64,000 bases of DNA, taken from NCBI RefSeq assembly GCF_030384885.1, contig NZ_CP128613.1, one strand, 5' to 3'. The notes beneath the pieces are model-generated. The model searched no databases. It was not told the DNA's origin and saw only the letters and a program-made list of their open reading frames with translations. A program made the translations under genes and the position numbers. This document shows positions 4,739-62,116 of this stretch, in pieces. Within the stretch, counting starts at the first letter, position 1, and every line of letters begins with the position of its first letter. Source of the DNA: Escherichia coli. GTDB lineage: Bacteria > Pseudomonadota > Gammaproteobacteria > Enterobacterales > Enterobacteriaceae.

Positions 4739-7036
4739 ATGAAATGGCTATGTTCAGTAGGTATCGCGGTGAGTCTGGCCCTGCAACCAGCACTGGCGGA
4801 TGATTTATTCGGCAACCATCCATTAACGCCTGAAGCGCGGGATGCGTTCGTCACCGAACTGCTTAAGAAAATGACGGTTGATGAGAAAATTGGTCAGCTG
4901 CGCTTAATCAGCGTCGGCCCGGATAACCCGAAAGAGGCGATCCGCGAGATGATCAAAGACGGGCAGGTTGGGGCGATTTTCAACACCGTAACCCGTCAGG
5001 ATATCCGCGCCATGCAGGATCAGGTGATGGAATTAAGCCGCCTGAAAATTCCTCTTTTCTTTGCTTACGACGTGCTGCACGGTCAGCGCACGGTGTTCCC
5101 GATTAGCCTCGGTCTGGCCTCGTCTTTTAACCTCGATGCGGTGAAAACGGTCGGACGTGTCTCTGCTTATGAAGCGGCAGATGATGGCCTGAATATGACC
5201 TGGGCACCGATGGTCGATGTTTCGCGCGATCCGCGCTGGGGACGTGCTTCCGAAGGTTTTGGGGAAGATACGTATCTCACTTCGATTATGGGTAAGACTA
5301 TGGTGGAAGCGATGCAGGGTAAAAGCCCGGCAGATCGCTACTCGGTGATGACCAGCGTCAAACACTTTGCCGCTTACGGCGCGGTAGAAAGTGGTAAAGA
5401 GTACAACACCGTCGATATGAGTCCGCAGCGCCTGTTTAACGACTATATGCCGCCGTACAAAGCGGGGCTGGATGCAGGCAGCGGTGCGGTAATGGTGGCG
5501 CTGAACTCGCTGAATGGCACGCCAGCAACTTCCGACTCCTGGCTGCTGAAAGATGTGCTGCGCGATCAGTGGGGCTTTAAAGGCATTACCGTTTCCGATC
5601 ATGGCGCAATCAAAGAGCTGATTAAACATGGCACGGCGGCAGACCCGGAAGATGCGGTGCGCGTGGCACTGAAATCCGGCATCAACATGAGTATGAGCGA
5701 CGAGTACTACTCGAAGTATCTGCCCGGTTTGATCAAATCCGGCAAAGTGACGATGGCAGAGCTGGACGACGCTGCCCGCCACGTGCTGAACGTCAAATAT
5801 GATATGGGGCTGTTCAACGACCCATACAGCCACCTTGGACCGAAAGAGTCTGACCCGGTTGATACGAATGCTGAAAGCCGCCTGCACCGCAAAGAAGCGC
5901 GTGAAGTGGCGCGCGAAAGCCTGGTATTGCTGAAAAACCGCCTTGAAACGCTGCCGCTGAAAAAATCGGCAACCATTGCGGTGGTAGGGCCACTGGCGGA
6001 CAGCAAACGTGACGTGATGGGCAGCTGGTCCGCAGCCGGTGTTGCCGATCAATCTGTGACCGTACTGACCGGGATTAAAAACGCCGTCGGTGAAAACGGC
6101 AAGGTGCTGTATGCCAAAGGTGCGAACGTTACCAGTGATAAAGGCATTATCGATTTCCTGAATCAGTATGAAGAGGCGGTCAAAGTCGATCCGCGTTCGC
6201 CGCAAGAGATGATTGATGAAGCGGTGCAGACCGCGAAACAATCTGATGTGGTGGTGGCTGTGGTCGGTGAAGCTCAGGGGATGGCGCACGAAGCCTCCAG
6301 CCGTACCGATATCACTATTCCACAAAGCCAACGTGACTTGATTGCAGCGTTGAAAACCACTGGTAAACCGCTGGTGCTGGTGCTGATGAACGGGCGTCCG
6401 CTGGCGCTGGTGAAAGAAGATCAGCAGGCTGATGCGATTCTGGAAACCTGGTTTGCGGGGACTGAAGGCGGTAATGCAATTGCCGATGTATTGTTTGGCG
6501 ATTACAACCCGTCCGGCAAGCTGCCAATGTCCTTCCCGCGTTCTGTCGGGCAGATCCCGGTGTACTACAGCCATCTGAACACCGGGCGGCCGTATAATGC
6601 CGACAAGCCGAACAAATACACTTCGCGTTATTTTGATGAAGCTAACGGGGCGCTTTATCCGTTCGGCTATGGTCTGAGCTACACCACTTTCACCGTCTCT
6701 GATGTGAAACTTTCTGCGCCGACCATGAAGCGTGACGGCAAAGTGACCGCCAGTGTGCAGGTGACGAACACCGGTAAGCGCGAAGGGGCGACGGTAGTGC
6801 AGATGTACTTGCAGGATGTGACGGCTTCCATGAGTCGTCCGGTGAAGCAGCTGAAAGGCTTTGAGAAAATCACCCTGAAACCGGGCGAAACTCAGACCGT
6901 CAGCTTCCCAATTGATATCGAGGCGTTGAAGTTCTGGAATCAACAGATGAAATATGACGCCGAGCCTGGCAAGTTCAATGTCTTTATCGGCACTGATTCC
7001 GCACGCGTTAAGAAAGGCGAGTTTGAGTTGCTGTAA
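4739..7036 (+). CDS. bglX: Periplasmic beta-glucosidase BglX (GH3)
   Basis: ORF 4667-7036; ATG at 4739 gives 765 aa beginning MKWLCSVGIAVSLALQPALA (signal peptide). Confidence 0.95.
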   Translation: MKWLCSVGIAVSLALQPALADDLFGNHPLTPEARDAFVTELLKKMTVDEKIGQLRLISVGPDNPKEAIREMIKDGQVGAIFNTVTRQDIRAMQDQVMELSRLKIPLFFAYDVLHGQRTVFPISLGLASSFNLDAVKTVGRVSAYEAADDGLNMTWAPMVDVSRDPRWGRASEGFGEDTYLTSIMGKTMVEAMQGKSPADRYSVMTSVKHFAAYGAVESGKEYNTVDMSPQRLFNDYMPPYKAGLDAGSGAVMVALNSLNGTPATSDSWLLKDVLRDQWGFKGITVSDHGAIKELIKHGTAADPEDAVRVALKSGINMSMSDEYYSKYLPGLIKSGKVTMAELDDAARHVLNVKYDMGLFNDPYSHLGPKESDPVDTNAESRLHRKEAREVARESLVLLKNRLETLPLKKSATIAVVGPLADSKRDVMGSWSAAGVADQSVTVLTGIKNAVGENGKVLYAKGANVTSDKGIIDFLNQYEEAVKVDPRSPQEMIDEAVQTAKQSDVVVAVVGEAQGMAHEASSRTDITIPQSQRDLIAALKTTGKPLVLVLMNGRPLALVKEDQQADAILETWFAGTEGGNAIADVLFGDYNPSGKLPMSFPRSVGQIPVYYSHLNTGRPYNADKPNKYTSRYFDEANGALYPFGYGLSYTTFTVSDVKLSAPTMKRDGKVTASVQVTNTGKREGATVVQMYLQDVTASMSRPVKQLKGFEKITLKPGETQTVSFPIDIEALKFWNQQMKYDAEPGKFNVFIGTDSARVKKGEFELL

Positions 7037-22182: not shown

Positions 22183-22265
22183 AAAAAAACCTGCTGGTGA
22201 GGCAGGTTCTTTTATTTACTACTTTCAGGCCTAACACCACGGCCTGTGCAACATCGTGTTCCAAC
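22183..22265 (-). ncRNA. orzO: OrzO-like type I antitoxin sRNA (boundaries estimated)
   Basis: Minus-strand -35 TTGCAA (22295-22300), 17-nt spacer, -10 TATAAT (rc of 22272-22277); intrinsic terminator at 22182-22214; 5' ~20 nt (rc of 22246-22265) complementary to toxin 5'UTR 22412-22431 with one mismatch. Confidence 0.6.
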
Positions 22266-22271
22266 GAACGA

Positions 22272-22322
22272 ATTATAACCATCGGTGGACCCCGTTGCAA
22301 TTAAGATAATGAGATTTATAAT
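22272..22322. promoter_or_regulatory. Divergent overlapping sigma70 promoters for the antitoxin sRNA (-) and the toxin mRNA (+)
   Basis: Palindromic TTGCAA serves as -35 on both strands; + strand -10 TATAAT at 22317-22322 places the TSS near 22330. Confidence 0.55.
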
Positions 22323-22503
22323 CCTGACTGTTGGGACGTTGCGCCGGATCGAACCCATTTCAAGTCCTGGCTACCGGACGGGTGGTGCCGCAGGTAGTGC
22401 CCTGATCCGGAGTGCAACATCGTGGTCCAACATACGTAAACCAGTATCGACAGGCAGTGTAAGGGTAAGATGCTGGTGTTGCGCTCCTTAATAAGGAGAG
22501 CGG

Positions 22504-22593
22504 ATGGACACGCTGACACAAAAGTTAACCGTGCTCATTGCCGTACTGGAGTTATTAGTGGCTCTGTTACGGCTGATTGATTTGTTGAAGTAA
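22504..22593 (+). CDS. zorO: Type I toxin, ZorO-like 29-aa hydrophobic peptide
   Basis: ATG at 22504 preceded by SD AAGGAG; translates to MDTLTQKLTVLIAVLELLVALLRLIDLLK; ~174-nt 5'UTR; recognised from memory as ZorO/ZorP family (which paralog is uncertain). Confidence 0.75.
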   Translation: MDTLTQKLTVLIAVLELLVALLRLIDLLK

Positions 22594-22616
22594 CGGGCAA
22601 ATTGAAACGCATCTAA

Positions 22617-22641
22617 GGGGGAAAATACCGCTTCCCCCTTT
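22617..22641 (+). terminator. Hairpin terminator downstream of the toxin ORF
   Basis: gggggaa-aataccgc-ttccccc stem-loop followed by a U-rich tract. Confidence 0.5.
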
Positions 22642-22759
22642 AATAAAATGATTATTGCTTCCATTAATTCACCCGATAACTTTTTTCTTATTTATTAATT
22701 CATCGATTTTATAATTAACGTACATTTGACCGGGATGTGAGTATTTATGGTGGCTATTG

Positions 22760-22972
22760 GCGAAAAATATCTGGAAACCAGATCGCGGAAAATAAAAAAA
22801 CCTGCTGGTGAGGCAGGTTCTTTTATTTACTACTTTGACGATAACTTGCTGATTGTGCAACATTTCGTACCAACGAGTAAATTATAACCATATCCACACT
22901 CCATTGCAATTCAGTGAGTGAGATTTATAATCCTGCCCCTTGGGAGGTTGTGCCGGATCGGACCAATTTGAA
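22760..22972. repeat. Copy 2 of the repeat; truncated toxin-antitoxin unit with no toxin ORF
   Basis: Homology to copy 1 ends about 15 nt before the yehK stop codon; terminator and both promoters conserved. Confidence 0.85.
22793..22876 (-). ncRNA. Second Orz-like sRNA gene (OrzP-like), apparently orphan
   Basis: Minus-strand -10 (rc of attata 22882-22887) and -35 ttgcaa 22904-22909; terminator at 22793-22825; 5' pairing region diverged (gtgcaacatttcgtaccaac). Confidence 0.5.
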
Positions 22973-45218: not shown

Positions 45219-45253
45219 TACTCCCCCCCAGTACCTGATACTACCCCCCAGTA
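45219..45253. promoter_or_regulatory. Two tandem RcnR operator sites in the rcnA-rcnR divergent promoter region
   Basis: tactcccccccagta (45219-45233) and tactaccccccagta (45239-45253), i.e. TACT-C(6-7)-AGTA inverted repeats. Confidence 0.8.
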
Positions 45254-45301
45254 GAATAATAGTGCTATGATTTTTCATGTTCTTGTTAACCAGGTGTTGC
45301 C

Positions 45302-45574
45302 ATGTCTCATACAATCCGTGATAAACAGAAACTGAAAGCGCGTGCCAGTAAGATTCAGGGTCAGGTCGTGGCGCTCAAGAAAATGCTCGACGAGCCGCAC
45401 GAATGCGCAGCTGTTCTACAACAGATTGCTGCTATCCGTGGCGCGGTAAACGGCCTGATGCGCGAAGTGATTAAGGGGCATCTGACGGAACACATCGTTC
45501 ACCAGGGGGATGAGCTAAAACGTGAAGAAGATCTGGATGTCGTTCTGAAGGTGTTGGATTCATATATCAAATAA
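45302..45574 (+). CDS. rcnR: Ni/Co-responsive repressor RcnR (CsoR/RcnR family)
   Basis: 90 aa beginning [22 protein letters not shown]. Confidence 0.93.
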
Positions 45575-45667
45575 TTTCACAACGTTATTGTAATCCCGCC
45601 GTTTTTCCTCGTTTACAACGTGTGCGCGGGACATTACCATCCATCTCTGCGATTCATCATCGCAACC

Positions 45668-45790
45668 AAACGACTCGGGGTGCCCTTCTGCGTGAAGGCT
45701 GAGAAATACCCGTATCACCTGATCTGGATAATGCCAGCGTAGGGAAGTCACAGACCACCAGGTCATTGCTTCTTCACGTTATGGCAGGAG
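45668..45790 (+). ncRNA. TPP (thi-box) riboswitch in the thiM leader
   Basis: cgactcggggtgcccttctgcgtgaaggctgagaaatacccgtatcacctgatctggataatgccagcgtagggaagtc matches the thiM TPP aptamer; expression platform runs to the SD of thiM. Confidence 0.9.
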
Positions 45791-45796
45791 CAAACT

Positions 45797-46585
45797 ATGC
45801 AAGTCGACCTGCTGAGTTCCGCGCAATCAGCGCACGCGTTAAACCTCTTTTACCAACACTCTCCTCTTGTGCATTGCATGACCAATGATGTGGTGCAAAC
45901 CTTTACTGCCAATACTTTACTGGTGCTCGGTGCATCGCCAGCGATGGTTATCGAAGCAGAAGAGGCCAGTCAGTTTGCGGCTATCGCCAGTGCCTTGCTA
46001 ATTAACGTCGGCACGCTGACGCAGCCACGCGCACAGGCAATGCGTGCTGCCGTTGAACAGGCAACACACTCCCAAACGCCCTGGACGCTTGATCCGGTCG
46101 CGGTTGGCGCACTCGATTATCGTCGCCATTTTTGTCATGAACTTTTATCTTTTAAACCGGCAGCGATACGTGGTAATGCTTCGGAAATCATGGCATTAGC
46201 TGGCGTTGCTAATGGTGGACGGGGAGTGGACACCACTGACGCCGCGGCTAACGCGATACCTGCTGCACAAACACTGGCACGGGAAACTGGCGCAATCGTC
46301 GTGGTCACTGGCGAGGTGGATTATATTACCGATGGTCGTCGCACCGTTGGCATTCACGGCGGCGATCCGTTAATGACCAAAGTGGTAGGAACTGGCTGTG
46401 CATTATCGGCGGTTGTCGCTGCCTGTTGTGCGTTACCAGGTGATACGCTGGAAAATGTCGCATCTGCCTGTCACTGGATGAAACAAGCCGGAGAACGCGC
46501 CGTCGCCAGAAGTGAAGGGCCTGGCAGTTTTGTTCCCCATTTTCTTGATGCGCTCTGGCAATTGACGCAGGAGGTGCAGGCATGA
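45797..46585 (+). CDS. thiM: Hydroxyethylthiazole kinase
   Basis: 262 aa; start [32 protein letters not shown]. Confidence 0.93.
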
Positions 46586-47382
46586 AACGAATTAACGCTC
46601 TGACGATTGCCGGTACTGATCCGAGCGGTGGCGCAGGGATTCAGGCCGATCTTAAAACCTTCTCGGCACTTGGCGCTTATGGTTGCTCAGTTATTACTGC
46701 ACTGGTGGCGCAAAATACCCGTGGCGTACAGTCGGTGTATCGCATTGAGCCTGATTTTGTCGCCGCCCAGCTCGATTCGGTGTTCACTGATGTGCGAATC
46801 GACACCACTAAAATCGGTATGTTGGCGGAAACCGATATTGTTGAAGCGGTGGCAGAACGGTTGCAACGTTATCAGATCCAAAACGTGGTACTCGACACCG
46901 TTATGCTGGCAAAAAGCGGCGACCCTCTGCTTTCACCTTCGGCGGTTGCCACGCTGCGCAGTCGATTATTGCCACAGGTTTCATTAATAACGCCAAACTT
47001 GCCCGAAGCTGCCGCCTTGCTCGACGCGCCACACGCGCGCAACGAACAGGAAATGCTGGAACAAGGGCGATCGCTGTTGGCGATGGGTTGTGGCGCAGTG
47101 CTAATGAAAGGTGGTCATCTGGATGATGAGCAAAGCCCGGACTGGCTGTTTACCCGAGAGGGGGAACAACGGTTTACTGCACCGCGCATTATGACCAAAA
47201 ACACCCACGGCACTGGTTGTACGCTCTCTGCGGCGTTGGCTGCACTACGCCCGCGCCATACAAACTGGGCTGACACCGTACAGGAGGCAAAAAGCTGGCT
47301 TTCATCGGCGTTAGCCCAGGCCGACACGCTGGAAGTTGGCGACGGTATTGGTCCGGTTCACCACTTCCACGCCTGGTGGTGA
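46582..47382 (+). CDS. thiD: Hydroxymethylpyrimidine/phosphomethylpyrimidine kinase
   Basis: 266 aa; start overlaps thiM stop; [27 protein letters not shown]. Confidence 0.93.
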
Positions 47383-61945: not shown

Positions 61946-62032
61946 AAAAAATAAGCCCGTGTAAGGGAGATTACACAGGCTAAGGAGGTGGTTCCTGGTA
62001 CAGCTAGCATTTTATGGGTTATGTTTTTCAGC
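61946..62032 (-). ncRNA. cyaR: CyaR (RyeE) Hfq-dependent sRNA
   Basis: Minus strand reads GCTGAAAAACATAACCCATAAAATGCTAGCTGTACCAGGAACCACCTCCTTAGCCTGTGTAATCTCCCTTACACGGGCTTATTTTTT, matching CyaR including its terminator, as recalled. Confidence 0.9.
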
Positions 62033-62116
62033 GAAACGGATGATAACCTTAATAAATGCAGCTGTATGTGATCGGTTTCTAAGAATTTTCCATCCGGGAA
62101 AAATAATCGAAATTAA

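Follow-up and report, generated by a model that had tools for sequence, protein, structure and literature searches.

The element in front of thiM in the window (the whole stretch of Escherichia coli DNA that was analysed, 64,000 nucleotides) is almost certainly the TPP riboswitch of E. coli thiM, an OFF-type element of the thiM-thiD 5' leader. The riboswitch is intact and sits in its normal context, and it is already known and already annotated. The original prediction placed a well-known TPP riboswitch at 45668-45796 on the plus strand. This description is right: the element corresponds to the K-12 thiM riboswitch, and RefSeq already lists it at this position. The boundaries are nearly exact, as the span takes in the aptamer and the part of the platform that is not translated and stops at the last base before the AUG (45797), although the whole functional unit extends a little further. 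Among riboswitches, the leader of E. coli thiM is a founding example and one of the most thoroughly studied. The value of the result is mostly that of a correct annotation. Of possible interest to specialists are a rare natural variant at the base of the sequestering stem and, in some strains, foreign DNA that abuts the riboswitch at 45663.

Identification of the aptamer

The whole window was scanned with Rfam 15 (4,227 families, gathering thresholds). This covariance-model scan, which the original prediction had named as its check, returned the TPP riboswitch model RF00059 once in 64 kb, at 45666-45762 (+), with 71.5 bits against a gathering threshold of 54.3 and an E-value of 4.2e-12. In a permissive local Rfam search, model positions 1-105 were fully matched (E-value 2.6e-14). 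All helices P1-P5 are present around the three-way junction in this alignment, the optional P3a is missing, and few non-canonical pairs were flagged. In NZ_CP027579.1, the corresponding coordinates carry a RefSeq "TPP riboswitch" feature. The prediction of a canonical thi-box aptamer is borne out by this match above threshold and by the identity of the aptamer with that of K-12 thiM. The permissive search also gave a snoR12 candidate at 45539-45619 (-), which was rejected as a chance match (18.2 bits against a gathering threshold of 39, E-value 0.95).

According to the Rfam structure line and the RNAalifold consensus of 49 Enterobacterales leaders, the aptamer core extends from P1 to P1' (45672-45749, +) and encloses P2, P3, P4 and P5. 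P1 is formed by GACU at 45672-45675 with AGUC at 45746-45749 (+; Rfam structure line). Two numberings of this RNA are in use: nt 1 of the classic "165 thiM" RNA is 45662 of the window (PMC1920254), and in the transcription start site (TSS)-based numbering of Bastet et al. the AUG is nt 150 (PMC5499598). The CUGAGA pyrimidine-sensing bulge can be read directly at 45699-45704 (+), where U39-A43 are 45700-45704, and together with G60 (45721) and C77-G78 (45738-45739) it gives a set of ligand-contact nucleotides that is the same as in K-12. Crystal structures of the thiM aptamer with TPP exist, and from such structures we take the region of C77 and G78 to be the contact to pyrophosphate and Mg2+. 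In K-12, U39-A43 are needed to recognise the HMP moiety of TPP, and G60 is protected in a TPP-dependent manner (PMC1920254). TPP binding by the K-12 thiM aptamer is documented (PMC1920254; PMC2018614). The window aptamer would be expected to bind TPP as well, judging from the 100% identity of its core (45663-45751) with K-12.

The fold energy of the region is unexceptional (z = -0.47 against shuffled sequences), and does not contribute to the identification, whose basis is the covariance-model match together with conservation and context; no evidence against the identification was found.

Genomic context

The riboswitch precedes thiM (hydroxyethylthiazole kinase; 45797-46585, +), which is annotated by RefSeq and matches TIGR00694 with 331.5 bits (cut-off 256.4). 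The next gene is thiD (HMP/HMP-P kinase; 46582-47382, +), which matches TIGR00097 with 360.1 bits (cut-off 204.95). The thiM start codon AUG is at 45797-45799 (+), both in the open reading frame (ORF) list and in the RefSeq CDS, and the RF00059 match ends 34 nt upstream of it on the same strand. ATGA at 46582-46585 holds both the stop of thiM and the start of thiD, so that the two genes overlap. Both protein matches and this overlap agree with the thiM-thiD target that had been proposed for the switch.

The genes upstream in the window are rcnR and rcnA. A region of 256 nt around the element is 100% identical to E. coli 2013C-4282 (NZ_CP027579.1), where the gene order is rcnA (-), rcnR (+), riboswitch, thiM, thiD and yegX, the same as in K-12 strain TG1. 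This 256-nt region is matched in 5,424 of 5,426 complete E. coli genomes. The K-12 thiM system occupies the same orthologous locus (rcnR - riboswitch - thiM - thiD), with the same alternative pairings, Shine-Dalgarno sequence (SD), start codon and spacing.

Two-state expression platform

For folding, the locked state had the Rfam aptamer pairs enforced and the remaining RNA folded freely, and the free state was unconstrained. In the locked fold, the anti-SD strand 45766-45776 (+; core CUUC at 45769-45772) pairs with 45782-45793, including the pairing of CUUC with GGAG at 45787-45790. This GGAG is the thiM SD (+), which by direct reading lies 6 nt before the AUG and is nt 126-129 in PMC1920254. 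Its probability of being unpaired is 0.00-0.01 with the aptamer locked versus 0.35-0.54 without constraint. Two further helices of the locked fold reach into the ORF, formed by 45753-45757 with 45813-45818 and by 45759-45764 with 45806-45811. The early-ORF 3' strands of the OFF state accordingly comprise P7 (45806-45811) and P6 (45813-45818) within 45806-45821 (+), the last position being reached with the G allele at 45752. In the constrained folds, the OFF-state platform extends into the ORF to about 45819-45821, and in K-12 the first 23 nt of the thiM ORF belong to the expression platform (PMC5499598).

In the free-state minimum free energy (MFE) fold, the aptamer 3' half (45732-45750, +), which contains the 3' strands of P5, P4 and P1, pairs with 45767-45786 and would serve as the anti-anti-SD strand of the ligand-free ON state. 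The linker GACC-ACCA-GGUC (45753-45764, +) folds into a local hairpin (45753-45756 with 45761-45764) in the free state and supplies the 5' strands of P6 and P7 in the locked state.

The predicted strand exchange in the window is the one that was derived for K-12 by chemical probing (Rentmeister et al.; PMC1920254). In K-12 RNA without TPP, the SD is open and nt 71-86 are paired with nt 108-125 (PMC1920254); the two segments are 45732-45747 and 45769-45786 of the window. With TPP, the K-12 SD is sequestered in P8, and P7 involves G100/G101; a G100/G101 to C mutant (window 45761-45762) lost genetic control (PMC1920254). The sequestration of the thiM SD by the platform, as originally proposed, agrees with all of this: GGAG and CUUC are paired when the aptamer is locked, the pairing matches the probed K-12 model, and the same helix is returned by RNAalifold for the 49 leaders.

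The switch would work as follows. When TPP is scarce, the aptamer 3' half (45732-45750) would pair with the anti-SD strand (45767-45786); with the anti-SD captured, GGAG at 45787-45790 would be open and thiM translated, and translation of thiD would be coupled to that of thiM via the ATGA overlap. When TPP is bound, the aptamer helices P1-P5 (45672-45749) would close and set the anti-SD strand free, and the freed CUUC (45769-45772) would pair with GGAG within a longer stem that extends into the first ~23 nt of the ORF, blocking 30S binding. A translational fusion with 6 codons of the K-12 allele was reported to be repressed in vivo in a TPP-dependent manner (PMC5499598). The window allele is likely to be repressed in the same way, a conclusion transferred from K-12 by near-identity of sequence.

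Conservation of the riboswitch

Positions 45663-45814 are identical to the K-12 thiM leader except 45752, which is A in the window and G in K-12. The flanks differ much more: the 88 nt from the rcnR stop to 45662 have 13 differences, one of which falls in the spacer between -35 and -10, and on the other side 15 lie in the 146 nt of the thiM ORF that follow (codons 7-54). With one difference inside versus 13 and 15 beside it, the riboswitch stands out as a block of strong conservation with variable sequence on both sides. At 95% identity or more, 61 nt of the switch (45722-45782) occur in 5,424 of 5,426 E. coli genomes.

Species-representative genomes were also scanned with an exact pattern for the aptamer 3' end, GCCAGCGTAGGGAAGTC, which gave at least 120 loci, mostly in Enterobacterales. 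Among the 120 matches listed, 91 have a ThiM homologue that starts 152-160 nt into the segment (155 in the window). For 49 distinct Enterobacterales thiM leaders aligned with MAFFT, RNAalifold returned the OFF state, consisting of P1-P5 and the CUUC:GGAG helix. In P3, three pairs are changed on both sides, in 6-8 sequences each (UA to CG, UA to AU and CG to UA). CUUC and GGAG are complementary in 48-49 of the 49 leaders, and because these pairs are invariant they show conservation, not covariation. P1, P2, P4 and P5 are also essentially invariant in the 49 leaders, partly since 17 nt of these helices were prescribed by the search pattern.

The linker between P1 and the anti-SD strand aligned with many gaps in MAFFT, and the comparative result for it rests on per-sequence folding. 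By this method a linker hairpin of at least 4 bp exists in 29 of 49 leaders, a count in which Escherichia-type GCTTC sequences were missed by the regular expression. Outside Escherichia, the linker (window 45750-45768) forms a hairpin with a longer stem (5-7 bp; GAUGCC...GGCAUC and GACAC...GUGUC are examples), the sequence of which differs between genera. Leaders of the Escherichia/Pseudocitrobacter type may be the only ones in which P6/P7 pair with the ORF as in E. coli.

One species-representative genome, Pseudocitrobacter faecalis DSM 27453 (5437-5608), carries a thiM riboswitch that is apparently disrupted, as judged from its sequence. The 5' two thirds of its aptamer are replaced by unrelated sequence, while the aptamer 3' part, the expression platform and thiM are intact.

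Two other readings of the element were rejected. One takes the Rfam match for a chance similarity or the remnant of a decayed element and has the region code for a 68-aa antisense ORF at 45560-45766 (-) instead. Such an ORF is indeed present in the mechanical ORF list. However, it is not annotated by RefSeq and its best Pfam match, at 13.8 bits, falls short of the 27-bit cut-off, and the E-value of 4e-12 for RF00059 and the near-invariance of the element in ~5,400 genomes, while both flanks vary, led us to reject chance match and relic alike; we give this reading hardly any weight. The other concerns the mode of control. Many Firmicutes TPP riboswitches act through intrinsic terminators. Those of Firmicutes, such as that of the Bacillus thiamine operon, share the aptamer fold and the ligand with the window element (RF00059), but their platform is an intrinsic terminator/antiterminator. 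A Bacillus-type, transcription-attenuating switch, in which the ligand would form an intrinsic terminator, would be in line with a 1.2-fold drop of thiM mRNA with TPP in a cell-free T7-driven system (PMC10450168). Yet we found 0 terminator-like hairpins with a U-tract on either strand of 45250-45900, which agrees with the report of no obvious Rho-independent terminator in the thiM structure (PMC5499598), and the OFF-state helix terminates at the SD and AUG without a U-run. We therefore ruled out an intrinsic-terminator platform, as none was found in 45250-45900, and regard attenuation of this type as wildly improbable here. A translational OFF switch of RF00059 type is the reading that we retain.

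Rho-dependent layer

The original prediction omitted Rho-dependent termination inside early thiM, which is described for K-12 (PMC5499598). There, once translation is blocked, a rut site near nt 200-210 becomes exposed and Rho terminates at nt 231, 237 and 262 (PMC5499598). Mapped on the window, the rut site corresponds to 45847-45857 and the termination sites to about 45878, 45884 and 45909. Rho control in K-12 needs codons 20-34 and a stem-loop, the latter being required for control at the mRNA level, and the TPP-dependent drop of mRNA in K-12 is bicyclomycin-sensitive (PMC5499598). The dual mechanism, translational and Rho-dependent, was restated later (PMC11487190, PMC10450168).

A C-rich, G-poor tract is present in the window at 45842-45872 (+; thiM codons 16-26), a likely rut site by its 25-nt sliding C/G profile and by homology to K-12. 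The profile peaks at 45852 with 40% C and 0% G, versus 44% and 0% in K-12. The tract is followed by a 10-bp stem-loop (45870-45897, +), which is predicted in the window, in K-12 and in an O157-like strain. Six substitutions relative to K-12 fall within 45842-45874, with a net loss of C; in 25-nt windows the C content is 36% versus 44% in K-12 at 45862 and 32% versus 40% at 45872. The change of C to U at 45874 turns a C-G pair of the stem-loop into U.G, and the stem is otherwise kept. A C-rich, G-poor tract in codons ~9-34 followed by a stem-loop, as expected for the indirect Rho-dependent layer of Bastet et al. (2017), is present here despite the six substitutions. The sequence elements for a Rho layer are thus in place, and Rho dependence of the window allele is likely by homology to K-12. 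On an untranslated message, the C-rich tract at about 45842-45872 would be exposed and Rho would load; termination would occur around the stem-loop (45870-45909), and thiD mRNA would be lowered as well.

Two other E. coli TPP riboswitches are close to this arrangement. The thiC riboswitch also binds TPP, belongs to RF00059 and combines a translational OFF switch with Rho-dependent termination (PMC11487190, PMC5234074), but its Rho site lies inside the riboswitch domain, and a start-site pause acts as checkpoint (PMC11487190). The thiM rut site, by contrast, falls within the ORF, at codons 20-34 (PMC11487190, PMC5499598). The window does not contain the thiC element, since RF00059 matches only once in its 64 kb. 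The tbpA (thiB) riboswitch closely resembles thiM in its secondary structure, and control there is also translation-first with an effect on mRNA (PMC11487190). It differs in that it regulates a thiamine ABC transporter operon and that 12 codons, versus 34 for thiM, suffice for the mRNA effect (PMC11487190).

A rare A at 45752

The single difference inside the conserved leader is A at 45752 (+; G in K-12), which is nt 91 in the classic numbering and nt 105 from the TSS. Only 7 of 5,424 complete E. coli genomes match 45722-45782 perfectly. The other 5,417 are at 95-99% identity, and every sampled row of this band has exactly one mismatch. The carriers of human origin are 2013C-4282, 2020CK-00188 and 2017-02-2CC, and the non-human ones are EC42405 and MFDS1019527 (cattle), R32_14_1F (goat) and MFDS1022581 (animal-source food). 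EC42405 has the same leader haplotype as the window, which suggests a single origin of the A allele.

In the K-12 165-nt RNA, G91 is predicted to pair with C158 and to close the lowest helix of the OFF-state platform. With A91, the optimum of the 165-nt RNA drops P6/P7 and keeps P8. A91 raises the predicted cost of the locked state by 0.8 kcal/mol in K-12, 1.8 in the window and 3.05 in the O157-like background, and for transcripts of 172 nt or more the in silico shift by the A allele is 0.5-3 kcal/mol. The in silico cost of locking itself (12-16 kcal/mol) omits ligand and tertiary energies and is useful for the comparison of alleles only. Position 91 varies within Escherichia, with C in the GTDB E. 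coli representative and G in E. albertii. Of the 49 Enterobacterales leaders, 45 have A in the aligned column, and there G90-A91 begin a covarying linker hairpin. A reading of A at 45752 as disruptive was given less weight, because the folding shift is small and background-dependent and A is common at that column in other genera; the A is probably a near-neutral lineage polymorphism.

Sequence differences from K-12 allow two doubts about how this allele behaves. Since the rut region differs, the K-12 Rho layer might be inoperative in the window strain, leaving a translation-only switch. The six substitutions and net C loss in 45842-45874 point that way, and K-12 point mutants in the C-rich tract (M2, M6 and M7) abolished regulation of a 34-codon fusion (PMC5499598). 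We nevertheless consider it unlikely, as the tract is still rich in C and free of G at its core (45852, 40% C and 0% G) and its 10-bp stem-loop has been kept; longer fusions regained regulation in the rut mutants, which implies redundant downstream signals, and similar C-rich tracts with stem-loops were reported for other species (PMC5499598). The second doubt is that the rare A at 45752 might retune the switch, with a less stable OFF stem that would make repression of thiMD leakier or demand more TPP. The allele is indeed restricted to 7 of 5,424 genomes in 61 nt that are otherwise almost invariant, the predicted closing pair G91-C158 is lost at a cost of 0.5-3 kcal/mol in silico, and P7 mutations four to ten nt away (G100/G101) abolish control in K-12 (PMC1920254). 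Against this, A leaves the core SD:anti-SD helix and the pairing of the ON state unchanged, nt 91 is not fixed in Escherichia and is A in 45 of 49 Enterobacterales leaders, the effect is a nearest-neighbour prediction for a terminal pair, and the single haplotype shared by the carriers fits drift in one lineage. Retuning appears quite unlikely, and a switch that would act as in K-12, on translation and through Rho, remains our preferred reading.

Transcript start and 5' region

A promoter-like site lies at 45612-45640 (+), with TTTACA at 45612-45617 (-35), a 17-nt spacer and TACCAT at 45635-45640 (-10); it is a match to the consensus only (9 of 12 positions). Together with the numbering in PMC5499598, it points to a TSS at about 45647-45648, which would be 7-8 nt downstream of the site. 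The transcript would then begin with a perfect 6-bp hairpin, UGCGAU-UCAUC-AUCGCA (45648-45664, +), which forms in both the free and the locked folds. It differs from K-12 by a single change in the loop, at 45655 (C here, T in K-12), and may protect the 5' end. We found no discussion of a 5' hairpin of the thiM transcript in the thiM riboswitch papers examined.

Downstream of rcnR, a gene with the orientation of thiM, no terminator-like structure was found in 45575-45611, and for this reason read-through from rcnR into the thiM leader is conceivable. This spacer (45575-45611) is the most variable stretch relative to K-12.

The upstream region is rearranged in some strains. In PNUSAE019785 (NZ_CP104645.1, 231-2500), rcnR and the riboswitch are separated by ~2.2 kb of additional DNA with three minus-strand ORFs (an outer membrane protein, a hypothetical protein and an HTH-like protein). 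Homology to the window resumes exactly at 45663, so that the K-12 thiM promoter and the 5' hairpin are displaced; the hairpin (45648-45664) is missing from strains with the 2.2-kb insertion. In PNUSAE019785 no sigma-70-like site on the right strand was found in the 250 nt upstream of the riboswitch. The same layout may exist in as many as 697 of the 5,424 genomes, those in which coverage of 45575-45830 is below 80%. In FCI56 (NZ_CM172715.1, ~3001), the match starts mid-aptamer at CUGAGA (window ~45702, query position 128), prophage genes lie upstream, and the riboswitch is unannotated. From this sequence, the thiM aptamer of FCI56 is apparently truncated by nature, and its thiM should be without TPP control.

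Other RNAs in the window

Several further Rfam families are present in the window. The OrzO-P antitoxin sRNA (RF02083) matches twice on the minus strand, at 22183-22258 (98.9 bits) and 22794-22867 (90.6 bits), ~600 nt apart, and 22183-22867 (-) looks like a tandem zor-orz type I toxin-antitoxin locus. The Peptidase-S11 RNA motif (RF03039) is found at 1618-1698 (+; 73.1 bits), and naRNA4, a REP-derived nucleoid-associated RNA (RF02564), at 2641-2718 (+; 74.2 bits). The CyaR/RyeE sRNA (RF00112) is present at full length at 61949-62034 (-), with 100.7 bits.
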